Positions 5,051 to 58,580 of a stretch of 64,000 bases of DNA are shown in pieces (positions within the stretch are counted from its first letter, which is position 1; each line of letters opens with the position of its first letter). The stretch is from positions 15,376,001-15,440,000 of the forward strand of contig OZ024759.1 of assembly GCA_964016885.1 (NCBI GenBank). Reading direction: 5' to 3'. The position numbers and the translations under genes are program-made. This DNA comes from Eledone cirrhosa (lineage: Eukaryota). The notes below the pieces were generated by a model. The model made no database searches. It was not told where the DNA came from and saw nothing but the letters and a program-made list of their open reading frames with translations.

Positions 5051-5410
5051 TTGATAGGTTTACAAATGTATGTTATTTAACTAACTAATTCAGTAAAAGG
5101 TAGGGATTATATATATTCAGTATAATAAAACATTATTAAATATATTATATCTTCAGAAGCAATATAAATGGTTATATAATGACCTGGGATTCCACAAGAT
5201 CAAAAGGAAAATATGTGTATATACGAATATATATATATATATATGGGGGCGGGGTTCTCGGGTTCAATCGGGGGCAAAAATAGTAAGTACGTTACTGAAT
5301 ACGTAGCAGAGTAGATACACTATTTAATATAGAAATGTCTTCTACGGAAATCATCATTAAAGAATGATTTCCTTTGAATGAAACAGTTCTAGTCTTGTAG
5401 AAGACATTAC

Positions 5411-5446
<36 letters not shown>

Positions 5447-5449
<3 letters not shown>

Positions 5450-7645
5450 AGTATAGACATAGAATATTCGAAAATATTCTGTATGTTTATAATAAACATT
5501 TTGAAGACCTAATCGCTATAGAATAGAATACGTCACGTATTACAATTAGATTCTCGATAAAAGCAAGGGAAGTAATCTACGCGTTTCATTCTTGTTAGAA
5601 TTCATCAGGACTACATATCCAGTGCTTTTATCGAGAATGACACAGCTAGAGACTTATAGAATACTTAGCTGTGTACTGGAACTGGTTTGAAAGAGCGGTT
5701 GCCGGTCCGGCAGAAATTAGAAATTGGAATAAATGCTCTGAAATAGCGATATATATGTGAGTATAGACATAGAATATTCGAAAATATTCTGTATGTTTAT
5801 AATAAACATTTTGAAGACCTAATCGCTATAGAATAGAATACGTCACGTATTACAATTAGATTCTCGATAAAAGCAAGGGAAGTAATCTACGCGTTTCATT
5901 CTTGTTAGAATTCATCAGGACTACATATCCAGTGCTTTTATCGAGAATGACACAGCTAGAGACTTATAGAATACTTAGCTGTGTACTGGAACTGGTTTGA
6001 AAGAGCGGTTGCCGGTCCGGCAGAAATTAGAAATTGGAATAAATGCTCTGAAATAGCGATATATATGTGAGTATAGACATAGAATATTCGAAAATATTCT
6101 GTATGTTTATAATAAACATTTTGAAGACCTAATCGCTATAGAATAGAATACGTCACGTATTACAATTAGATTCTCGATAAAAGCAAGGGAAGTAATCTAC
6201 GCGTTTCATTCTTGTTAGAATTCATCAGGACTACATATCCAGTGCTTTTATCGAGAATGACACAGCTAGAGACTTATAGAATACTTAGCTGTGTACTGGA
6301 ACTGGTTTGAAAGAGCGGTTGCCGGTCCGGCAGAAATTAGAAATTGGAATAAATGCTCTGAAATAGCGATATATATGTGAGTATAGACATAGAATATTCG
6401 AAAATATTCTGTATGTTTATAATAAACATTTTGAAGACCTAATCGCTATAGAATAGAATACGTCACGTATTACAATTAGATTCTCGATAAAAGCAAGGGA
6501 AGTAATCTACGCGTTTCATTCTTGTTAGAATTCATCAGGACTACATATCCAGTGCTTTTATCGAGAATGACACAGCTAGAGACTTATAGAATACTTAGCT
6601 GTGTACTGGAACTGGTTTGAAAGAGCGGTTGCCGGTCCGGCAGAAATTAGAAATTGGAATAAATGCTCTGAAATAGCGATATATATGTGAGTATAGACAT
6701 AGAATATTCGAAAATATTCTGTATGTTTATAATAAACATTTTGAAGACCTAATCGCTATAGAATAGAATACGTCACGTATTACAATTAGATTCTCGATAA
6801 AAGCAAGGGAAGTAATCTACGCGTTTCATTCTTGTTAGAATTCATCAGGACTACATATCCAGTGCTTTTATCGAGAATGACACAGCTAGAGACTTATAGA
6901 ATACTTAGCTGTGTACTGGAACTGGTTTGAAAGAGCGGTTGCCGGTCCGGCAGAAATTAGAAATTGGAATAAATGCTCTGAAATAGCGATATATATGTGA
7001 GTATAGACATAGAATATTCGAAAATATTCTGTATGTTTATAATAAACATTTTGAAGACCTAATCGCTATAGAATAGAATACGTCACGTATTACAATTAGA
7101 TTCTCGATAAAAGCAAGGGAAGTAATCTACGCGTTTCATTCTTGTTAGAATTCATCAGGACTACATATCCAGTGCTTTTATCGAGAATGACACAGCTAGA
7201 GACTTATAGAATACTTAGCTGTGTACTGGAACTGGTTTGAAAGAGCGGTTGCCGGTCCGGCAGAAATTAGAAATTGGAATAAATGCTCTGAAATAGCGAT
7301 ATATATGTGAGTATAGACATAGAATATTCGAAAATATTCTGTATGTTTATAATAAACATTTTGAAGACCTAATCGCTATAGAATAGAATACGTCACGTAT
7401 TACAATTAGATTCTCGATAAAAGCAAGGGAAGTAATCTACGCGTTTCATTCTTGTTAGAATTCATCAGGACTACATATCCAGTGCTTTTATCGAGAATGA
7501 CACAGCTAGAGACTTATAGAATACTTAGCTGTGTACTGGAACTGGTTTGAAAGAGCGGTTGCCGGTCCGGCAGAAATTAGAAATTGGAATAAATGCTCTG
7601 AAATAGCGATATATATGTGAGTATAGACATAGAATATTCGAAAAT
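5447..7645 (-). mobile_element. Retrozyme-like array, left arm: 7 apparently identical 310-bp monomers plus a partial, each with an HHR on the minus strand
   Basis: Period 310 (GTGAGT at 5447, 5757, 6067, 6377, 6687, 6997, 7307, 7617). HHR at 5572-5614 + n*310. Confidence 0.93.
5572..5614 (-). ncRNA. Minimal type I hammerhead ribozyme (7 copies at +310 intervals, last at 7432-7474)
   Basis: Exact reverse complement of the 7886-7928 motif. Confidence 0.93.
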
Positions 7646-9941
7646 TGTAATACGTGACGTATTCTATTCTATAGCGATTAGGTCTTCAAAATGTTTATTA
7701 TAAACATACAGAATATTTTCGAATATTCTATGTCTATACTCACATATATATCGCTATTTCAGAGCATTTATTCCAATTTCTAATTTCTGCCGGACCGGCA
7801 ACCGCTCTTTCAAACCAGTTCCAGTACACAGCTAAGTATTCTATAAGTCTCTAGCTGTGTCATTCTCGATAAAAGCACTGGATATGTAGTCCTGATGAAT
7901 TCTAACAAGAATGAAACGCGTAGATTACTTCCCTTGCTTTTATCGAGAATCTAATTGTAATACGTGACGTATTCTATTCTATAGCGATTAGGTCTTCAAA
8001 ATGTTTATTATAAACATACAGAATATTTTCGAATATTCTATGTCTATACTCACATATATATCGCTATTTCAGAGCATTTATTCCAATTTCTAATTTCTGC
8101 CGGACCGGCAACCGCTCTTTCAAACCAGTTCCAGTACACAGCTAAGTATTCTATAAGTCTCTAGCTGTGTCATTCTCGATAAAAGCACTGGATATGTAGT
8201 CCTGATGAATTCTAACAAGAATGAAACGCGTAGATTACTTCCCTTGCTTTTATCGAGAATCTAATTGTAATACGTGACGTATTCTATTCTATAGCGATTA
8301 GGTCTTCAAAATGTTTATTATAAACATACAGAATATTTTCGAATATTCTATGTCTATACTCACATATATATCGCTATTTCAGAGCATTTATTCCAATTTC
8401 TAATTTCTGCCGGACCGGCAACCGCTCTTTCAAACCAGTTCCAGTACACAGCTAAGTATTCTATAAGTCTCTAGCTGTGTCATTCTCGATAAAAGCACTG
8501 GATATGTAGTCCTGATGAATTCTAACAAGAATGAAACGCGTAGATTACTTCCCTTGCTTTTATCGAGAATCTAATTGTAATACGTGACGTATTCTATTCT
8601 ATAGCGATTAGGTCTTCAAAATGTTTATTATAAACATACAGAATATTTTCGAATATTCTATGTCTATACTCACATATATATCGCTATTTCAGAGCATTTA
8701 TTCCAATTTCTAATTTCTGCCGGACCGGCAACCGCTCTTTCAAACCAGTTCCAGTACACAGCTAAGTATTCTATAAGTCTCTAGCTGTGTCATTCTCGAT
8801 AAAAGCACTGGATATGTAGTCCTGATGAATTCTAACAAGAATGAAACGCGTAGATTACTTCCCTTGCTTTTATCGAGAATCTAATTGTAATACGTGACGT
8901 ATTCTATTCTATAGCGATTAGGTCTTCAAAATGTTTATTATAAACATACAGAATATTTTCGAATATTCTATGTCTATACTCACATATATATCGCTATTTC
9001 AGAGCATTTATTCCAATTTCTAATTTCTGCCGGACCGGCAACCGCTCTTTCAAACCAGTTCCAGTACACAGCTAAGTATTCTATAAGTCTCTAGCTGTGT
9101 CATTCTCGATAAAAGCACTGGATATGTAGTCCTGATGAATTCTAACAAGAATGAAACGCGTAGATTACTTCCCTTGCTTTTATCGAGAATCTAATTGTAA
9201 TACGTGACGTATTCTATTCTATAGCGATTAGGTCTTCAAAATGTTTATTATAAACATACAGAATATTTTCGAATATTCTATGTCTATACTCACATATATA
9301 TCGCTATTTCAGAGCATTTATTCCAATTTCTAATTTCTGCCGGACCGGCAACCGCTCTTTCAAACCAGTTCCAGTACACAGCTAAGTATTCTATAAGTCT
9401 CTAGCTGTGTCATTCTCGATAAAAGCACTGGATATGTAGTCCTGATGAATTCTAACAAGAATGAAACGCGTAGATTACTTCCCTTGCTTTTATCGAGAAT
9501 CTAATTGTAATACGTGACGTATTCTATTCTATAGCGATTAGGTCTTCAAAATGTTTATTATAAACATACAGAATATTTTCGAATATTCTATGTCTATACT
9601 CACATATATATCGCTATTTCAGAGCATTTATTCCAATTTCTAATTTCTGCCGGACCGGCAACCGCTCTTTCAAACCAGTTCCAGTACACAGCTAAGTATT
9701 CTATAAGTCTCTAGCTGTGTCATTCTCGATAAAAGCACTGGATATGTAGTCCTGATGAATTCTAACAAGAATGAAACGCGTAGATTACTTCCCTTGCTTT
9801 TATCGAGAATCTAATTGTAATACGTGACGTATTCTATTCTATAGCGATTAGGTCTTCAAAATGTTTATTATAAACATACAGAATATTTTCGAATATTCTA
9901 TGTCTATACTCACATATATATCGCTATTTCAGAGCATTTAT

Positions 9942-9946
<5 letters not shown>
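7646..9946 (+). mobile_element. Retrozyme-like array, right arm: ~7.4 inverted copies of the same 310-bp monomer
   Basis: Reverse complement of the left-arm unit. Junction at 7643-7645 through AAT microhomology. Ends in (TA)n. Confidence 0.93.
7886..7928 (+). ncRNA. Minimal type I hammerhead ribozyme (also at 8196, 8506, 8816, 9126, 9436, 9746)
   Basis: GTAGTC-CTGATGA-ATTCT(aaca)AGAAT-GAAA-CGCG-TA-GATTAC. Intact core, GUA site, palindromic ACGCGT stem III, distal 16-bp stem ATTCTCGATAAAAGCA/TGCTTTTATCGAGAAT. Confidence 0.93.
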
Positions 9947-9991
<45 letters not shown>

Positions 9992-10098: not shown

Positions 10099-10565
<467 letters not shown>

Positions 10566-15667: not shown

Positions 15668-15703
15668 TCTTCTGATGAAGGACTAGCGTCCGAAATGTCA
15701 AGA
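15668..15703 (+). ncRNA. PLE-type hammerhead ribozyme
   Basis: TCTT-CTGATGA-A-GGAC(tagc)GTCC-GAAA-TGTC-AAGA. Confidence 0.75.
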
Positions 15704-21022: not shown

Positions 21023-21189
21023 CCCTTTCCTAATTATTTCTCCTCCCGAATGAAACAGTTCTAGTCCCGTAGAAGCCATTTCTATATTAAATATATCAAA
21101 TATATGTATACCCTGCTATGTATCGAGTACCTTACGTATTGTGGTTACACCCTATTGAACCTGATATATATATATATATATATCATAAT

Positions 21190-32227: not shown

Positions 32228-32904
32228 AACATATATATACATATTTGTGTGTATGTGTAAAATAGTCGCGAGAGAGTGAGAGTTTCTGTTTGTAGTGTGT
32301 TGTTTAAACACCGCCTATAATTCTCTAAACATGTAATGTAGTTAAATATACGTTCAATGCCTTGTATCTGTTTCGCTATATTTTATTTTATAGTATTTTA
32401 GCCATAATTTTTATCTCAGTTATTTCATCTTTCCAAATGAATAAACGGTTTAGTGGCAAAGAAAGTAATGAGTCTCAAGAAAAGTCCAAGAGGTAGTGAT
32501 TTGGAAAAATGAGATAGTGGAGGTTGTTTTTCTTATTCCCTTGTTACTGGTATTTTTATTTTGTTTAGCTCCAGGTCAACATTGATCGAACAGACAAACC
32601 TATTGATCAAATGAGTTTGAATCAAGCAGCTATTGTTTGATTTTTTTTTCAGCCATATTGAATGAGAAGGAGGTGCGATGAAGTAGTCGTTAGAATGTCG
32701 GATCGAATAGCTTGTTGTATGAGACCTGAGATTACTTCCTTTGAGGTCAACATTTGCTTTCTCGATAAATAAAGTCAACATTTGCCTAGGTTAATAAATA
32801 AAGTCAACCTTTTCCTAGCTTGGTAAATAAAGTAACAGTCCACTACTTGTCTCGACCTTTTCATTCTCTTGCAAGACATTTTATTTCAGGTTGCTCCGTT
32901 TTAT

Positions 32905-34543
32905 CTGAGTTATAATGTGACTCAAAACGTCGGCTTTATCATACACTGTGTCAAGCTGTATCGGCTTGTATTTCATTAAACCACGAGCAGCTTCTCTGAG
33001 TTATAATGTGACTCGAAAGGTCGGCTTTATCATACACTGTGTCAAGCTGTATCGGCTTGTATTTCATTAAACCACGAGCAGCTTCTCTGAGTTATAATGT
33101 GACTCGAAAGGTCGGCTTTATCATACACTGTGTCAAGCTGTATCGGCTTGTATTTCATTAAACCACGAGCAGCTTCTCTGAGTTATAATGTGACTCAAAA
33201 GGTCGGCTTTATCATATACTGTGTCAAGCTGTATCGGCTTGGATTTCATTAAACAACGAGCAGCTTCTCTGAGTTATAATGTGACTCAAAAGGTCGGCTT
33301 TATCATACACTGTGTCAAGCTGTATCGGCTTGTATTTCATTAAACCATGAGCAGCTTCTCTGAGTTATAATGTGACTCGAAAGGTCGGCTTTATCATACA
33401 CTGTGTCAAGCTGTATCGGCTTGTATTTCATTAAACCACGAGCAGCTTCTCTGAGTTATAATGTGACTCAAAAGGTCGGCTTTATCATACACTGTGTCAA
33501 GCTGTATCGGCTTGGATTTCATTAAACAACGAGCAGCTTCTCTGAGTTATAATGTGACTCAAAAGGTCGGCTTTATCATACACTGTGTCAAGCTGTATCG
33601 GCTTGTATTTCATTAAACCACGAGCAGCTTCTCTGAGTTATAATGTGACTCGAAATGTCGGCTTTATCATACACTGTGTCAAGCTGTATCGGCTTGTATT
33701 TCATTAAACCACGAGCAGCTTCTCTGAGTTATAATGTGACTTAAAAGGTCGGCTTTATCATACACTGTGTCAAGCTGTATCGGCTTGGATTTCATTAAAC
33801 AACGAGCAGCTTCTCTGAGTTATAATGTGACTCAAAAGGTCGGCTTTATCATACACTGTGTCAAGCTGTATCGGCTTGGATTTCATTAAACCATGAGCAG
33901 CTTCTCTATGTTATAATGTGACTCAAAAGGTCGGCTTTATCATACACTGTGTCAAGCTGTATCGGCTTGGATTTCATTAAACCACGAGCAGCTTCTCTGA
34001 GTTATAATGTGACTCAAAAGGTCGGCTTTATCATACACTGTGTCAAGCTGTATCGGCTTGGATTTCATTAAACCATGAGCAGCTTCTCTATGTTATAATG
34101 TGACTCAAAAGGTCGGCTTTATCATACACTGTGTCAAGCTGTATCGGCTTGTATTTCATTAAACCACGAGCAGCTTCTCTGAGTTATAATGTGACTCGAA
34201 AGGTCGGCTTTATCATACACTGTGTCAAGCTGTATCGGCTTGTATTTCATTAAACCACGAGCAGCTTCTCTGAGTTATAATGTGACTCAAAAGGTCGGCT
34301 TTATCATACACTGTGTCAAGCTGTATCGGCTTGGATTTCATTAAACAACGAGCAGCTTCTCTGAGTTATAATGTGACTCAAAAGGTCGGCTTTATCATAC
34401 ACTGTGTCAAGCTGTATCGGCTTGGATTTCATTAAACCATGATCAGCTTCTCTATGTTATAATTTGACTCAAAGGGTCGGCTTTATCATACACTGTGTCA
34501 AGCTGTATCGGCTTGTATTTCATTAAACCACGAGCAGCTTCTC
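32905..34543. repeat. 91-bp tandem satellite, 18 copies
   Basis: CTGAGTTATAATGTGACTCRAAAGGTCGGCTTTATC... at 32905, 32996, 33087 etc. Few variant positions. Confidence 0.97.
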
Positions 34544-34627
34544 TTATAGATCAAACGACATAAAAATAGTCATCGGAAGCGACAAATGTCCAGCACAAAC
34601 TCTTTAAAATGTTATTTTATATATCCA

Positions 34628-35257: not shown

Positions 35258-37879
35258 GATGGCTGCAAACTCTGCAAAGAGTATTGTAATCGCTTGTCAG
35301 ATTCAGATGTGGGACGCTCGAGTATGGCTTTTCAAGACTGCTAGAGACTTGCACTCCTTCACACACTGACGACAACTATGGAGAGATACACCTGGGCATT
35401 GCTTACGCACATCACGTTTGATCTTTTCGTGCTCTATGCGTCTGTCCTCAAAAAGATTATGGACCCCACCATTCACCATTCCACGCCAAGTCTCTCTTTC
35501 AAGAGCTATCTCCCAGTCAGCCATCATCAAGCCAGTTTTTTTCAATGAGTCCTTTTCACAATCCTTGAATCGCAGCTTTGAATTGTGAGGTGGTCTATTA
35601 GCCTCACAAAGCTCGCCATACAAGAGTTGTTTTGGGGATTGGATCATCCTCCATTTTGCAGAGGTGTCCGGTCCATCGCAAACGCTGTTGGTGGATGATA
35701 CTCTCAATGCTCAGACACTCCCTTCTCTCAAGGACCTCAACATCACTCAAATGCATCTGCCACTTGATACCGAGCATCTTTCTGAGAAACTGCTGGTGAA
35801 ACCGTTCCAATCTGTGGATATGCCGTTTGTAGGCAACCCATGTCTCATATGCATACAGCAAAGCTGACAGTACACATGCAGCATACACTCTCACCTTGGT
35901 CCTCATTGTGATTAATCGCCTGTACCAAAGACGGTCGTTGAGCCTTCCAAATGACTCACTTGCCTTACTAACACGTAGACCACCTTCTGCATCCAGAGAG
36001 CAGGTCACACTCAGAGTAGTACCCAAATACACAAATGTGTCAGCAGCCTTCAGCTTTTGACCGTATACGTGTATGGAGGGTTCATTGAAAACTTTATCCG
36101 GAGCAGGTTGGTACATCACGACAGTCTTCTTCAGACTGATTGTCAGTCCCAAATCACTGCACGCATTGGAAAAAGAATCTATAAGATGTTGCATGTCACT
36201 CTGGGAGTGTGCAAAGAGATCACAATCATCTGCATATAAAAATTATCTGATCAAGGTACTCAGTACCTTAGTGTTGGCAGTGAGACGCCTAAGGTTAAAC
36301 AGCCTGCCGGCAGTGCGATATCTGAGATATATACCGTGTTGACAATCCTTGAAGGCCATAAAGAACACCATCGCGAAATACAAGGCAAACAAAGTTGGTG
36401 AAGGTACATCACCCTGATTGACACTCTTTTCAACCGAGATTGGCTCAGACAGTTTACCTCCAGCATTCACCCATGCCTGCATGTCATCGAGGAAGTGTTT
36501 CAGAATGTTCACAAACTTTTCAGGACAGCCCAATCTCTCCAAAATAACTCACAAAGCCTTCCCATTAACGGTGTCAAATGCCTTGCTCAATGCATTTCTC
36601 TTGAAGTTGTTTGGCCGAGAAGATCATGTCAACAGTACCTCTGTCATTCTTAAATCCACATTGGGACTCAGGAAGTACCTCAACAGCAATGTGCTGTATC
36701 AATCTGTCCAACAATATCCTGCACAAGATCTTCCCAGCCACAGATAGCAGTGACATACCTCTGTAGTTGCCACAGTCATCTTTGGCTCCCTTTTCTTTGT
36801 AAAGTACCTCCATCAATGAATCTTTCCAATCTTGTGGCACATCTTCATTCCCAACAATCACAAAGAGATCAGTGAGGCGGTTTAAGAAGTTATCACCAGC
36901 ACACTTGAAAATCTCGGCACTCAGTCCATCCATTCCAGGTGACTTGCCGCTGTGTAATTTGGCAATGGCCTTCGCCACCTCATCAAATGAAGGAGGATCA
37001 GCCATTGCCAGCTTTGTAGTTCTGGATTGAATCGACCGGGTTGAACTCATCATCAATTTCTGATGGTCTGTTGAGAATCTCATCAAAGGGGTCATGCCAG
37101 CAGATCAGGATTTCCTTCAGATCTCTGAGCAATTCCTTGCCATCCCCGGAGCGAAGTGGTGATATTTGTAAACCGGTCGGACAATACACCTCCCTGAGCA
37201 GACTGTATAGGAGCTTTGTATCATGCCTATCTGAGGCCTTCTGGATTTCATCAGCCTTTTGGTTCCACCAGGTATCCTGCATGGCTCTCAATCGATGTTG
37301 CACACGTGCCTTGATCTGCCTGAAGGTCCGGTCACTCACGTCAGAACGTGTCTCACACAACAATGACGTCAGCACTTTTTATTTCTCTTCAAGCAAGGTC
37401 TGGATCACTGGATCATTTTCATCGAACTAGTCTTTATGCTTTCTATTGGTATGACCCCAAACTCCAGCACTAACATCATAGACGGTTTTCTTCAAAGATT
37501 CCCAAGTGTTTTCACATTCCATGGACTCAAGGGACCTCGACAGCTCAGCTCTGCCTTTCTGTTTACAGACGAGCCACGTTTAGTTGTCTTGGAAGTGCAA
37601 ACTTCTTCCCCCTTACTTTGGGCTTCAAAACAAATTGAAACTTGGCGCGCACCAGACGATGATCAGTCCAACATTCCGCGCCTCGCAATACAAGAACCAA
37701 CGTAATATCCCTGATATTAGGTTTTCTCGTTAAAACAAAGTCATTGTATTTCATCCAGCAGGGTGTCGAAATATCACCCTCCTCGCTAAGCTTGCTTGGT
37801 GGGGTTGCCGGTTTTGTCACCGACAACCCGACCATGTACTGGGTTACATGTTACCAGTAGCACTCGAGAGCAACTTGAC
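35256..37879 (-). pseudogene. RTE-clade LINE, frameshifted, most of the AP endonuclease deleted but 5' UTR retained
   Basis: ORF pieces: EN end (AECWTDHRLV), KSPGMDG, NYRGMSLLS, PESQCGF, QGD, FLYADD, YLG, RLRWTGH, C-terminal CxxC..H finger. 3' end in (TA)n. Confidence 0.93.
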
Positions 37880-38012: not shown

Positions 38013-38058
38013 TATATATACATCCATATATATATATATACATCCATATATATATATA

Positions 38059-38415
38059 CATCCATATATATATTGCTATTTCAGAGCTCCAATTTTAATT
38101 TTTAATTTCTGCCTGACCAACAACCGCTCTGCATAATCAGCTCCTGATTATTTACTAGATTTCTATAAGAATATAACATCAATGATCTCAGTAGACAGGT
38201 GGGGTAGTTGGCCTTGATAAGCTTCAACCAAAGCGAAACAAGTCTTGTCGGCTTATCTCCCCTGTTTGCTGAGATCAAAGTGAGTGAATTTGTCACTACT
38301 TTAAAACAATAACTTACGGTCTTCAAAATGCTTTTAATTAAGCATAAAGTGTATTACAAAATACATTATATATACATCCATATATATATTGCTATTTCAG
38401 AGCTCCAATTCTAAT
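38059..38415 (+). mobile_element. Diverged 316-bp retrozyme-like monomer (~1.1 units) related to the 310-bp array, with degenerate HHR at 38210-38253
   Basis: Shares GCTATTTCAGAGC, TAATTTCTGCC, CAACCGCTCT, TTCTATAAG, GGTCTTCAAAATG. Terminal redundancy 38059/38375. GGCC-TTGATAA-GCTT(caacca)AAGC-GAAA-CAAGTCTTG-TC-GGCT. Confidence 0.85.
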
Positions 38416-39905: not shown

Positions 39906-39948
<43 letters not shown>

Positions 39949-40114
39949 AAGTTATATTTAAAATTGTTGGGTTACAACTAGTAAATATTTATAACTGATA
40001 TAAAAGCACTCGACATATTGTTATAGCATATTGTTAATATGATATCCCCGAAATATATATATAATGAAATAAATATGGTTTTATAAATATAGTTTTCCAT
40101 TTATTTAATATTGT

Positions 40115-40174
<60 letters not shown>

Positions 40175-40652: not shown

Positions 40653-40890
40653 CAATATATTAATAAATGGAAACTATATTTATAAAACCATAATTATTTA
40701 ATTATATATATTTCAAGGGCAACCAAGGTAGATTGTGGTGCGCTTTCATCAGATAAAATACACATTTGTTTTATAAATATATAGTTATCACTATTCAATT
40801 TCAACTGTTGAGGTTGTCTATTTTATGGGTATGTCAATATTTATTTGTAAAACAAATCTGTATTTTATCTGATGAAAGCGCACCATAATC
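40650..40890. mobile_element. Family A fold-back with HHR at 40695-40760 (minus) and a truncated plus-strand copy from 40861
   Basis: TATTTTATCTGATGAAAGCGCACCA on both strands. Confidence 0.8.
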
Positions 40891-40984
40891 ATCATAACCA
40901 TCAACGTTAAGTTATCATCATCATCATCATCATCGACACCAAGTTATCATCATTCGACATTAATATCATAACGATCAACATCAA

Positions 40985-53388: not shown

Positions 53389-54357
53389 TTAGTTATACTA
53401 TTTATGGTTATGTAAATACAAAGCCTTAAGCAGTTGTAAGTATTTTACACACACCCTAAATAGTGGTAGGCAGTAATGTATTACTACCTTATTACCAGTA
53501 AGTTAAGTAGCTCAATGTAAAAACATCAGATGATTTACAGAGCAGTTATATGAAATATAAGAATCAAAGAACTGTTCAAAACATTATTGTGCTTACAGCT
53601 GTTTCCTCCAAATCGAGGTTTGGATTCTTCGGAGCAATTTATTAATGCATGGACAGTTATATGACCTCCTTTTCAGCCGAGAGACATACCAAATACATAT
53701 TCAAACATTGATACATATTCAAACATTGTGGGTCAACATTCATTACAGAATTTAGAGTGGCAGTACACACTTCGAGATTACATTTATATTAATAGGTACA
53801 ATCAAAAATCGAAGATATAGGTTAAAGTACAACATGAAGATAAGTGGTTATATAGTGCAAATGTTATATGTGTGGCACGCATGTGCGTCTTGTTTATATA
53901 GTGTGGCAGAGAGATATGTGTGGTAGAGGCACTTAGGTAGGTAAATAAGAGTGTTAGGTTGGTAGGTCTGGTGGCAAAGTCTTTATATGATTGATATAGT
54001 CTGTGTGTGGAGAAATATTATAAGCATTAAAGATAGTGCAAGCATTAAAAGTGTTATAAGTATTGGAGATGCACAGCGCAGGGATGTCAAGTAATTCATG
54101 TACTTCGGCATTTTCATGGTCAAGGGAGTGTATATTTCGATTATATGCCTTTCACATAATCCACGACAATCCAGTAAGAGATCGTAGTCTGGTGTTCTTT
54201 AGTTCGATACAGGGGGATGTTACGTTTCGAGAAACGCCATTGAATACCGGAAGTGTGTGTGTGGCTAAGGGGAGTTAATGCATGCGGGGAGGTAACTCTG
54301 GGGTTTCTATATCTAGCCATTAAAATGTGTCCCAATATAGACCCTAAATTCTATGGT
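53383..54357 (-). repeat. 3' pseudo-LTR
   Basis: Near-identical to 57555-58529 (one G/A difference noticed at ~53811/57983). Confidence 0.95.
53590..53636 (-). ncRNA. Hammerhead ribozyme in the 3' pLTR (CCGAAGA core variant)
   Basis: TGCT-CCGAAGA-A-TCCAAA(cctcga)TTTGGA-G-GAAA-CAGCTG-TA-AGCA. Confidence 0.82.
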
Positions 54358-55052
54358 GAGGTGCACCTTCCAAGAGAGACTTTTAAAGCATAAAGTGTAC
54401 TAACTATAGAGTAGTTTATATTATTATTAAGGTGGATTAACCCATCTTAAGGTGCTACAAATGGAAATTATAGATGATGAGCGAGGATTCTAAAATGATC
54501 TCTGTGGTTGTAGTCTGCTCATATGACCAGGCGCGGTGATTGCAGGATTGCTTCAGGACCCAATGATCTCTGGTAAGATCTGGGTCATCGCTTGCTACAT
54601 TGGATGTCGAAAGATAATCGTCCCCAGGCAGGCCAAGGTCAATCCGCAGTCCTCGCGACCCCTCTCTGACCGTCAGATCATCCATATACGTACAACCCGC
54701 ACGGCAGTTGCATTGCATTCACTCACTGCGCTCAGCAGCCCGGTCCTACTGGTCAACAGCGCTACTCGATTAAATCATTTTACATCTGTCTAAGGAAGGT
54801 GTTTCCTCTGCCCAACAACATCCAACCGATCAATTCATGCTCAAAATTACCCTTAGAGCGGTGTAGTGCCATCAAGTGGGTGGATGTTGTCACACCTGCC
54901 GTAGAGGTATAAATGGGTATTTTCCCTGCGAAGGGTTCCAGAGGGATGCCGTTGTTTGTGTTATAATGGATCAGCTAGTGTTGGGTATGTAGTATAGGGT
55001 GTGTTTCTGGTGTTTGATGCTAGATGTGGTGTTAGGTTCCAGTCCGACATTG

Positions 55053-57512
55053 CTATATATAGGGCTTAAAGTTTTGGAAGGAATGTCTGAGGCGGTGCTG
55101 GCAAGTTGCAAACACCTCAGATTTTTTGTTAAGTAGGTTACGGTTGGAGAAGATAATATTGTGTGTCTCTAGAATACAGAGGTTACAGAATTTATTAGGT
55201 GGTTTGTACGAGGTCGCGCTGCCTATCACTTCCCATTTGAGTGTGTATGGTTTATTTTTAGATTTTAGATAGTGTATGTAGCTAGAAAGTGAGGTGGAGT
55301 TGGCTAGGCTGTGCTTTTTGAACGAGTGGATGTGCGAGTTATATCTGATTTTGAAGCAGTTAGAAGTGGAGCCTACATAGGTTTCTGAAGAGTTATTAGT
55401 CGTGACTGTGCATGAGTATATGACATCCTTGGTTAGGCATTTTTTATCTAAAGGGCAGGTTCTATTAGCTCTACAGTTACAATTATTCTGTGCGTTAGTC
55501 CGCTGGTTATAATGCAATGCGGAAGTCTGTGTGGTGGATATAGGATTTTGGGTGTTCGGGTTGGCAACCCTGGTGTTATTACTTATACTAGTGTTATTTC
55601 TATTGTTACTGCCGTTGCTATTGTTGCTTGCTACAGTGGTATTTAGAGGGTTTGCATCCTGTTGTGATTTTGTTTGTTGGAAGTAAGAACTAATTTTACT
55701 ATTATTGCTGCTAGCTATGTGGTATGCTAAGTTAGGCGTCGTAGAGTATGAGATTTTAATGGTGTTTTTGTTTAAGAGGTTGTGGTACTTGTGTCCTAGA
55801 GGGAAGTTTTTATCTAGTAGTGAGAAGAAAGCCCTAGGTATGTTGGTGGAGACATTTAGGTTGAAAGGAGGGTTGAAAAATGTATTATTTCTTCTTCTAT
55901 TTTTGTTTTTAGTGTTTGGTGTGTTGCTTCCTCCTAAGGCCTCACAGTAGTTTCCATGGTAATGGTTACTTCCTGTGGCACCCTCCGCTTTGGTGTACTT
56001 GTGGTTGCTATTCCTATTATTAGACTTCCTCATGGACATGTTGTGCGAGATTATGTTGTAGCTATGTGTTTTCTTAGGTAGGAACTCAATTTCTATATTA
56101 TGGCCGGAGCTAGCTAATGCTTGATTGTAATATTGTGAGTTTTTGCTAAATATGTTTGCGTCATAGGACAGACTAGAGATTCTATTGGACACCCCCTTAG
56201 AGATAGAGTTTAATATTGATCTAGGGTGATTAGACTTGGTATCTACGTAAATAAGTTTCTCATTAGGCTTATGGAAAGGTGTATATATTTTTGAGTCTAG
56301 GTATAGTGTGGCGTCTAGGAAGTTAACATTTTTAGTGTTTTTGTCCATGGTGATACTAAGGTTAAAGTTTTTGAATGTCTTATGCAGTTGTTTTCTAGTT
56401 CTTTCTATATTAAATTTTTTATATTCTATGAGTAGAAGTGCATCATCGCGGTACAAACCACCGTTGAGGTAAGGGAGGTCTTTATGGATTTCATTGAGGA
56501 GGTATAGGCCGACCAAATCAGTGACCTGCGCCGAGTCACTAGATCCCATGGTTATGTCGAAGTTGTTGTGCGTATCCTTGCGTGTCCATAGTTGGTCCTC
56601 GAAGGTGATTATGGTTTTACGGGCCGCAAGGATGACATCAACCTGGGCTCTAGTCAGGTCGCTATTGGTCATGGCCATGATAAGTGCCTTATTTAATAGG
56701 ATAGGGGAAATAGAGGTGTAGTATGAATTGATATCAAATTGAATAAATTTTTTGTTTTTATTATTCTTGATATCCTTAAACCATTCAATTACTTCACCCG
56801 TATTTCCCCATTGTTTAAGGTGTATCTTGTGTTTAATTTGTGGGATGATTTTATCCAAAATCTTCTTGCTGATAATACCAATGTCGGACTTGGAAGGGCA
56901 GATAAGTCTTATCGTGGGGTTGCTGATGAAGTTCTCCTTATGGTCCTTCAGAGAGAATCTAGGGGGGTTCGGAGTGAAAGGTTGTGTATGCCTCTGTAGT
57001 CCTAGTTTAGACACTATATTATAACCCTCTACATTAATATCTTCTAAGTTTTTCAAGGTGGTTTTTTTGTAGCTTTTATGTAGTTCATTATATATAAACT
57101 TTCTATAAGTAATATAATCTAGGCTGTATATGTTATTAGTTTTATCTGCGTGTACAATAATTTTATTACTAGTTTTGAATCCACTAATAGAAGTGTTAAG
57201 TTTGTTTAAGAAGGTGTTGCTTCTAATATGGTGCTTATTGTATTTAATGTTCTTAACTAGTTTAACTAGGTCATTTTCAAAGGAGTTAAGTAGAGTGTTA
57301 TGAGGGGGGCTTTTAAAGGTTTTAAAGCCGAAGGAGTCAAAATTGTTAGTATTATTCAAGTTGTTAGATTTGTTTCTATCATAATGGAATGTCCTCCATC
57401 TCACTCTATTGATAAATGAATTTACACTGTTGATCAGCAATTTCTCATATGTATTCCTGGATGGTATTGGTATGTTCTTGGTTGACATGGGGAGTTGGTC
57501 TTTGATTAGCAT
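55053..57512 (-). CDS. Penelope-like reverse transcriptase + C-terminal GIY-YIG endonuclease, 819 aa
   Basis: HADKTNN, LKDHK..PTIRLI, FDINSYY, FDITMGSSDSAQ, LYRDDAL, NFLDATL. CNC..CPL..KCL linker. VIYSCTV..TYVG, FKIRYNSH, CNLCILE, LLNKKSE..CQH. Confidence 0.96.
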   Translation of the reverse strand: MLIKDQLPMSTKNIPIPSRNTYEKLLINSVNSFINRVRWRTFHYDRNKSNNLNNTNNFDSFGFKTFKSPPHNTLLNSFENDLVKLVKNIKYNKHHIRSNTFLNKLNTSISGFKTSNKIIVHADKTNNIYSLDYITYRKFIYNELHKSYKKTTLKNLEDINVEGYNIVSKLGLQRHTQPFTPNPPRFSLKDHKENFISNPTIRLICPSKSDIGIISKKILDKIIPQIKHKIHLKQWGNTGEVIEWFKDIKNNKNKKFIQFDINSYYTSISPILLNKALIMAMTNSDLTRAQVDVILAARKTIITFEDQLWTRKDTHNNFDITMGSSDSAQVTDLVGLYLLNEIHKDLPYLNGGLYRDDALLLIEYKKFNIERTRKQLHKTFKNFNLSITMDKNTKNVNFLDATLYLDSKIYTPFHKPNEKLIYVDTKSNHPRSILNSISKGVSNRISSLSYDANIFSKNSQYYNQALASSGHNIEIEFLPKKTHSYNIISHNMSMRKSNNRNSNHKYTKAEGATGSNHYHGNYCEALGGSNTPNTKNKNRRRNNTFFNPPFNLNVSTNIPRAFFSLLDKNFPLGHKYHNLLNKNTIKISYSTTPNLAYHIASSNNSKISSYFQQTKSQQDANPLNTTVASNNSNGSNNRNNTSISNNTRVANPNTQNPISTTQTSALHYNQRTNAQNNCNCRANRTCPLDKKCLTKDVIYSCTVTTNNSSETYVGSTSNCFKIRYNSHIHSFKKHSLANSTSLSSYIHYLKSKNKPYTLKWEVIGSATSYKPPNKFCNLCILETHNIIFSNRNLLNKKSEVFATCQHRLRHSFQNFKPYI

Positions 57513-57554
57513 ATTGGCAATATTATATGTCAGCTCAACGATATGGAGCAGTTA

Positions 57555-58529
57555 ATAGTATTAGTTATACTATTTATGGTTATGTAAATACAAAGCCTTA
57601 AGCAGTTGTAAGTATTTTACACACACCCTAAATAGTGGTAGGCAGTAATGTATTACTACCTTATTACCAGTAAGTTAAGTAGCTCAATGTAAAAACATCA
57701 GATGATTTACAGAGCAGTTATATGAAATATAAGAATCAAAGAACTGTTCAAAACATTATTGTGCTTACAGCTGTTTCCTCCAAATCGAGGTTTGGATTCT
57801 TCGGAGCAATTTATTAATGCATGGACAGTTATATGACCTCCTTTTCAGCCGAGAGACATACCAAATACATATTCAAACATTGATACATATTCAAACATTG
57901 TGGGTCAACATTCATTACAGAATTTAGAGTGGCAGTACACACTTCGAGATTACATTTATATTAATAGGTACAATCAAAAATCAAAGATATAGGTTAAAGT
58001 ACAACATGAAGATAAGTGGTTATATAGTGCAAATGTTATATGTGTGGCACGCATGTGCGTCTTGTTTATATAGTGTGGCAGAGAGATATGTGTGGTAGAG
58101 GCACTTAGGTAGGTAAATAAGAGTGTTAGGTTGGTAGGTCTGGTGGCAAAGTCTTTATATGATTGATATAGTCTGTGTGTGGAGAAATATTATAAGCATT
58201 AAAGATAGTGCAAGCATTAAAAGTGTTATAAGTATTGGAGATGCACAGCGCAGGGATGTCAAGTAATTCATGTACTTCGGCATTTTCATGGTCAAGGGAG
58301 TGTATATTTCGATTATATGCCTTTCACATAATCCACGACAATCCAGTAAGAGATCGTAGTCTGGTGTTCTTTAGTTCGATACAGGGGGATGTTACGTTTC
58401 GAGAAACGCCATTGAATACCGGAAGTGTGTGTGTGGCTAAGGGGAGTTAATGCATGCGGGGAGGTAACTCTGGGGTTTCTATATCTAGCCATTAAAATGT
58501 GTCCCAATATAGACCCTAAATTCTATGGT
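57555..58529 (-). repeat. 5' pseudo-LTR
   Basis: Direct repeat of 53383-54357. Confidence 0.95.
57762..57808 (-). ncRNA. Hammerhead ribozyme in the 5' pLTR, ~250 nt upstream of the ORF start
   Basis: Identical to 53590-53636. Confidence 0.82.
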
Positions 58530-58580
58530 TATATATATATATATATATATAAATATATATAAATATATATATATATAAAT

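Follow-up and report, generated by a model that had tools for sequence, protein, structure and literature searches.

Non-LTR retrozymes of animals and their proposed dependence on PLEs have already been published (Cervera and de la Pena 2020, PMC7229834; Li et al. 2026, 10.64898/2026.07.22.740005). The enzyme that moves them has so far been argued from co-occurrence and from pLTR similarity, with 24 of 57 retrozyme families showing homology to the pLTR of autonomous PLEs (10.64898/2026.07.22.740005). PLE insertions have a recognizable form: one copy is inverted and 5'-truncated, just one end bears a tail (30-40 bp), and microsatellites are favored as targets (Craig et al. 2021, PMC8557442). 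In vitro, both DNA strands are cut and extended, the tail corresponds to the distance between two internal reverse-transcription starts, and RNA 3' of these starts is required; for the anole PLE, the start site has no homology to the cut DNA and insertion needs no ribozyme cleavage (Frangieh et al. 2024, PMC11167929). Within hammerhead cores, C3 and G8 pair and covary in nature to U3 and A8, such ribozymes being active in vitro (Perreault et al. 2011, PMC3088659), and ~1,300 minimal U3-A8 ribozymes occur in Schistosoma PLEs (Cervera and de la Pena, PMC4209133).

Here, we describe a 316-bp unit from a 64,000-nucleotide stretch of Eledone cirrhosa DNA (the window). Elements of this kind are known; in this one the core is a variant, and the insertions themselves give unusually clear evidence of mobilization by PLEs. 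Like metazoan non-LTR retrozymes as reported in PMC7229834 and 10.64898/2026.07.22.740005, it is a short, non-coding, AT-rich monomer of ~310-320 bp found in tandem copies, with one type I hammerhead per unit, a palindromic helix III and coexisting PLEs. Unlike them as published, it has a U3-A8 core across a whole amplifying lineage, and its insertions are two-armed and inverted, with two fixed end sites in (TA)n; we found no mention of tails, paired end sites or U3-A8 retrozyme lineages in the main text of 10.64898/2026.07.22.740005 or in PMC7229834, supplements aside. While 21 Xenopus PLEs matched retrozymes in the former study, there is no pLTR-homologous partner among four coding PLE families here. 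With endonuclease-bearing PLEs (PMC11167929, PMC8557442), the family shares an inverted 5'-truncated arm, a one-end tail, partial tandems, a microsatellite or AT-rich target and a type I hammerhead. It differs from those PLEs in that the unit encodes no protein, its tail is ~26 nt rather than 30-40, its presumed start sites have AT microhomology to the target, and the ribozyme of its 316/320 types is full-length where theirs is minimal. The compensatory swap at positions 3 and 8 is the one known from other U3-A8 hammerheads (PMC3088659), including Schistosoma Cercyon PLEs (PMC4209133), but the Schistosoma ribozymes are minimal and mostly single, whereas the one described here is the full-length ribozyme of a tandem retrozyme. 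A literature search that covered few subscription journals and no repeat databases found no paper on this family.

A 316-bp monomer homologous to a 310-bp unit in the same window

The insertion and its sister array comprise the following features.

38051-38415, + strand: whole insertion (locus L001), single-armed, ~1.15 monomers, inside a (TA)n microsatellite
38020-38058, + strand: two additional ACATCC(AT)n copies bordering the insertion on its 5' side, possibly from slippage or stutter
38075-38390, + strand: retrozyme monomer, 316 bp, GC 33.5%
38075-38130, + strand: conserved head, with block 1 (38075-38087), block 2 (38103-38113) and block 3 (38121-38130)
38161-38169, + strand: block 4 (TTCTATAAG)
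38318-38367, + strand: block 5 (38318-38330) plus two hairpins (38328-38345 and 38348-38367)
5439-9947: array of the sister 310-bp family, made of two inverted arms (minus, 5439-7645; plus, 7643-9947)

An earlier note on this DNA, made from the sequence alone, had described a 316-bp unit with terminal redundancy at 38059-38415. The period is indeed 316, with block 1 at 38075 and again at 38391; the insertion spans 38051-38415, with the ACATCC(AT)n copies upstream. The note had also seen five ordered blocks common to this unit and the 310-bp unit, all of which are present in conserved circular order, these blocks being the longest exact matches, chosen after the fact. Global alignment of the two units gives 195 identical columns out of 321 and a score of 236. 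Dinucleotide shuffles, an alignment no better than which was to count against the claim, average 76 with a maximum of 111, and none of 1,000 reaches the observed score. Identity outside the blocks is 52%, and the ribozyme arm alone scores 34, which is equalled in 5 of 1,000 shuffles. On alignment, the 316-bp unit is homologous end to end with the 310-bp unit. In the 310-bp array, all 13 full units compared are identical, and they have a C3-G8 core and a minimal palindromic stem III.

The monomer has the size and composition of non-LTR retrozymes (non-coding, ~170-400 nt, GC under 50%). The longest stop-free stretch seen in any unit is 87 codons, antisense, and the RT plus GIY-YIG open reading frame of an autonomous PLE is absent from the 316-bp unit, whose predicted fold has a z score of -6.5; the unit behaves as a substrate of PLEs rather than as an autonomous one. 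Tandems of at least two hammerhead units are found at the family level, from dimers to ~25 units, and the 38051-38415 copy has one ribozyme.

A young, amplifying lineage

The genome (3.0 Gb) is rich in (TA)n. A DNA search gave 157 matches among 40 scored of 1,156 candidates, the full-length ones being 92-100% identical and those with the best scores 95-100%, and copies occur as monomers, short tandems and one array of ~25 units, some arrays having periodic variants. Motif searches, which count units and not insertions, matched the head of the 316 type 1,479 times and that of an older ~320-bp type 1,001 times; a 312-bp variant within the 310 type has 773 matches, and blocks 1-2, which cover all types sharing them, have 18,038. 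Reversed controls gave 0 each time. Since full-length copies are so similar and motif counts so high, the copy at 38075-38390 is, judging by these comparisons, a recent member of a young, amplifying, high-copy lineage with older subfamilies, and not a decayed copy. Contigs of four sequencing runs of unknown kind contain related sequence and one joint going back 316, which fits tandem DNA and a circle alike.

A hammerhead with a compensated core

The predicted ribozyme consists of the following parts.

38183-38277, + strand: type I hammerhead arm, with a 17-bp distal stem (38183-38199/38261-38277) and proximal stem I (38210-38213/38250-38253)
38214-38220, + strand: core UUGAUAA, a U3-A8 swap of the C3-G8 pair
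38221-38234, + strand: stem II, 4 bp, with a CAACCA hexaloop
38238-38249, + strand: palindromic stem III and GUC triplet (38247-38249), predicted cut 38249/38250

As the earlier note had observed, this arm differs in sequence from that of the 310-bp unit yet still pairs, with the 17-bp distal stem, stem II GCTT/AAGC and GUC at 38247-38249. Its verdict that the TTGATAA core is probably dead is not supported, since TTGATAA is the norm of the lineage and a compensatory U3-A8 swap. Of 86 monomers binned as 316/320 type, 14 were unparsed, and 70 of the other 72 have TTGATAA, the exceptions being one TTGAAAA and one mis-binned 310 type. A core pattern open to C or U at position 3 and to G or A at position 8 gave 1,445 matches; among the first 100 listed, counted by eye, 98 are U3-A8, 2 are U3-G8 and none has C3. 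The arm has the other parts of a type I hammerhead as well, that is a core N3UGANN8A followed by GAAA and NUH, three helices and a Watson-Crick 3-8 pair. The odd core thus looks like a compensated, potentially working variant rather than a dead one, and searches requiring CUGANGA would miss the whole U3-A8 lineage.

The best Rfam match of the 316-bp unit is Hammerhead_HH9 (E 5e-4, 24.6 bits, well under the gathering score of 52), which the 310-bp unit also matches below threshold (E 1.6e-3), and across the 64-kb window there is no Rfam match at gathering score. As regards a loop I/loop II contact, the 4-bp stem II with its CAAxxA hexaloop agrees with the HH9 consensus. In a model that leaves out tertiary contacts, an alternative monomer structure in which the core is sequestered has an advantage of 6.2 kcal/mol over the core-open fold, the difference being 2.9-4.9 kcal/mol in two older copies. 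In vitro, cleavage failed in eight of nine predicted Xenopus retrozymes (Li et al. 2026, 10.64898/2026.07.22.740005), so a predicted hammerhead is no proof of activity. By eye, CCAACAACC in the head (38116-38124) could form 8 of 9 pairs with GGUAGUUGG (38203-38211) in the ribozyme 5' strand, a possible switch.

Stem III was drawn in the earlier note as CAAG/CTTG, which cannot form in a monomer because the loop would be 1 nt; these letters are half of a palindrome able to pair between two ribozymes. A perfect or odd palindrome is found in 62 of 77 parsed monomers. Where the monomer loop would be one or two bases, the inner pair changes from A-U to G-C, and stem III would therefore pair only between two ribozymes. 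Computed self-duplexes are worth -10 to -24 kcal/mol versus 0 to -1.8 for hairpins. Since stem III stays palindromic across variants, cleavage would most likely occur as a dimer, the double-hammerhead mode described for animal repeats (PMC4209133).

Covariation in the ribozyme arm

By itself, comparing the 310 with the 316 unit amounts to just one phylogenetic contrast, and the covariation evidence comes from the subfamilies. From 127 monomers, 119 passed filters, of which 80 of the 316/320 type were placed in a tree and 39 of the 310 type were excluded. Deep branches, those carrying at least four leaves, have 24 helix changes, of which 21 preserve pairing (5 of them two-sided) and 3 break it, while at the tips 49 of 141 keep and 92 break it (Fisher p = 1.7e-6); these counts are tree-dependent, and 16 of the 21 deep kept changes are one-sided via G-U, which transitions favor. 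All but one of the 21 fall in the ribozyme arm. An alignment of 23 sequences, hand-picked from both types, has pairing in 96.7% of its cells and two-sided changes at 19 of 44 pairs, whereas slid controls reach at most 4; kinship of the sequences inflates this result. The absence of covariation among family members, named beforehand as evidence against selection on structure, is thus not what we see: such selection is borne out in the ribozyme arm.

The same does not apply to TCAGAG/CGCTCT, for which complementarity had been proposed and covariation named as a check. The two motifs are not complementary over six bases, the possible helix being AGAGC/GCUCU (5 bp), with two-sided change in none of its 5 pairs and no deep change; this invariance is partly built in because the homologue searches used these blocks. 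The 316 circle gives this helix a pair probability of 0.12, the 310 circle one of 0.75. Outside the ribozyme, covariation is confined to the two hairpins after block 5, which show two-sided changes at 3 pairs, all on one contrast (310 versus 316/320 types). A GACC/GGUC long-range helix was rejected, with a pair probability of at most 0.05.

Two-armed insertions mostly end at two sites, one per arm

Copies terminate in (TA)n at either of two places, within CATATATAT (site 1) or ~26 nt further, at the end of CCAATTCTAAT (site 2).

38379-38389, + strand: end site 1 (internal CATATATAT), presumed first reverse-transcription start
38390-38415, + strand: 'tail' of ~26 nt holding block 1, ending at site 2 (38415), where the copy meets (TA)n

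The insertions lie in (TA)n and mostly consist of two inverted arms. Among 54 complete two-armed inverted insertions, 43 have one arm per site and 4 have both arms at site 1, while no insertion has its two arms at site 2; in the other 7, an end is unclassified. Once two duplicates are removed, the one-arm-per-site rule holds in 41 of 45 (p = 5e-9). It is seen in all three types, including the 310 array in the window, the minus arm of which ends at site 1 and the plus arm at site 2. As to target-site duplications, the insertion ends merge into (TA)n. These insertions have the form of PLE insertions, with a one-end tail, an inverted 5'-truncated arm and a microsatellite or AT-rich target, and the genome also has four PLE-like families that share this two-end pattern in (TA)n. 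What is new here is that the insertions in (TA)n are mostly made of two inverted arms with paired end sites ~26 nt apart.

By analogy with PLEs, the ~26-nt offset of the arm ends would be the 'tail' and sites 1 and 2 reverse-transcription starts, in which case the conserved blocks flank two such starts. The tail would contain block 1, and blocks 2-3 would follow closely on the 3' side of site 2, which makes the head a candidate binding region for a PLE protein. Because both insertion ends map into or beside the blocks, the role in reverse transcriptase recognition that the earlier note proposed for them is plausible. The insertion ends carry the tail rule of PLEs, which names two start sites and a region to mutate. 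We also considered a two-template origin of the arms and rejected it as a rule: the arms are closer to each other than to the median other copy in 26 of 27 loci, and nearest to each other in only 10 of 27.

Candidate partners and chimeric joints

Young PLEs that have open reading frames occur in this genome and are possible partners. Among the four coding PLE families inspected in it, none has the five blocks in its pLTR. Head-to-head joints link retrozyme arms at L023 to a young Neptune-like PLE (family A), at L141 to a second coding PLE and at L031 to a small element with a hammerhead, clade names here (Neptune, Poseidon, Hydra) resting on motifs rather than on a computed classification. The L023 joint agrees with the one-arm-per-site rule: its retrozyme arm, a 316 unit, stops at site 1, and the PLE arm has a tail of its own. 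On this joint, family A is a candidate partner, and only a candidate. It has open frames of 476 and 775 aa with RT and GIY-YIG hits, copies (L187, L188, L196) that are 94-98% identical, two ends ~47 nt apart (a tail of ~47 nt) and a pLTR without the five blocks; none of 20 further family A loci shows a joint to the retrozyme. PLEs crowd these microsatellites, and several single-armed copies adjoin unrelated DNA.

Other candidates were discarded. PLE fragments beside L062, L074, L121, L147 and L156 are separate insertions sharing (TA)n, and a 2,451-bp spacing that might have been a pLTR-ORF-pLTR arrangement (L120, G000:C1:52354500-52361500) is a local duplication without an ORF, with a two-armed 316 copy nested in a PLE end. 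At L141-L143 (G000:C1:56078382-56078918), a 163-bp derivative without the ribozyme arm forms a tandem that ends at site 2, head to head with a truncated coding PLE; with 3 matches at one locus only, it is not a mobile family.

The window also holds the following elements.

53390-58530, - strand: PLE-like element with direct terminal repeats and an end in (TA)n, 832-aa ORF at 55053-57551
About 5210-5415, near 21047, and near 480 (- strand): family Y copies

The element at 53390-58530, which we take to be Hydra-like, has RT and GIY-YIG-like motifs by eye and terminal repeats without the five blocks, and its 832-aa ORF has no Pfam match at E 0.01. Family Y is abundant and has 0.8 kb, a hammerhead, two end sites and a tail of ~65-70 nt; it was dismissed as a coding PLE, since it matches none of four PLE proteins and ~0.8 kb is shared.

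Proposed mobilization and alternative explanations

We put at about 0.8 the probability that the family of 38075-38390 is a non-coding non-LTR retrozyme with a working U3-A8 hammerhead, mobilized in trans by a PLE. Tandem copies would be transcribed, and the type I hammerhead with its U3-A8 core would cut at GUC, most likely as a double hammerhead via the palindromic stem III. By analogy with known systems, cleavage would release a 316-nt monomer that is ligated to a circle. An endonuclease-bearing PLE protein would then nick both strands of a (TA)n tract and start cDNA synthesis within the RNA at two fixed positions ~26 nt apart; the cDNAs would each run round the template and join head to head.

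The same PLE-driven element might have a slow or dispensable ribozyme, linear multimeric transcripts being the template and the hammerhead carried along. Such an arrangement would agree with the anole PLE, for which insertion in vitro needs no cleavage (PMC11167929), with the core-sequestering fold preferred by the monomer and with the existence of a hammerhead-less 163-bp tandem ending at site 2. We nevertheless find it quite unlikely, since 20 of the 21 deep pairing-keeping changes are in the ribozyme arm, the 163-bp deletion derivative is confined to its single locus, and one insertion has 13 identical units, which agrees with a single circle as its template. Far less probable, and already largely refuted, is an ordinary satellite or SINE-like repeat that DNA recombination or a LINE had spread, of which this copy would be a decayed member. 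The two fixed internal end sites, one per arm, the (TA)n target, the lack of a poly(A) end, the lineage-wide U3-A8 core and the covarying helices all speak against a repeat of that kind, even though there are tandem arrays, some with periodic variants (one of ~25 units), and a LINE-like reverse-transcriptase fragment adjoins the 38051-38415 copy.

Compatible with PLE-driven retrozyme mobilization is the idea that the 310 lineage swapped its ribozyme centre with family Y instead of covarying gradually, so that the sister comparison would be partly a module swap. From the core to GAAAC, the 312 type is identical to Y at 26 of 29 positions and to the 320 type at 15 of 29, and none of the hammerheads read here from other PLE families resembles the 310-type centre. 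However, constrained core accounts for 12 of the 29 positions, the segments of the 310 and 316/320 types are of equal length without gaps, and both fit HH9 with a 4-bp stem II and hexaloop. The likeness may reflect module exchange or shared descent, and we consider the swap rather unlikely. A broader picture, possible but doubtful, would join these elements: a minimal 316-nt PLE substrate with start sites and binding head resolved to the base, a dimeric PLE enzyme that primes one arm per site and occasionally loads two RNAs, and a ribozyme centre that may be an exchangeable module. Loading of two different RNAs would explain the head-to-head chimeras with a coding PLE arm (L023 and L141) or with another small element (L031).

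Several further features were noted in the window. Small inverted AT-rich elements with a minimal hammerhead-like motif lie at 39945-40115 and 40660-40900 (family X, which is the other arm at L031). An inverted pair at 10406 (- strand) and 10456 (+ strand) has a TTGAAAA...GAAA hammerhead-like motif, another possible U3-A8 core, and a C3-G8 hammerhead-like motif is found at 15672. By eye, the decayed LINE-like reverse-transcriptase fragment that adjoins the insertion spans 36000-37750 (- strand), and a minisatellite of 18 copies of 91 bp (96% matches) occupies 32904-34544.
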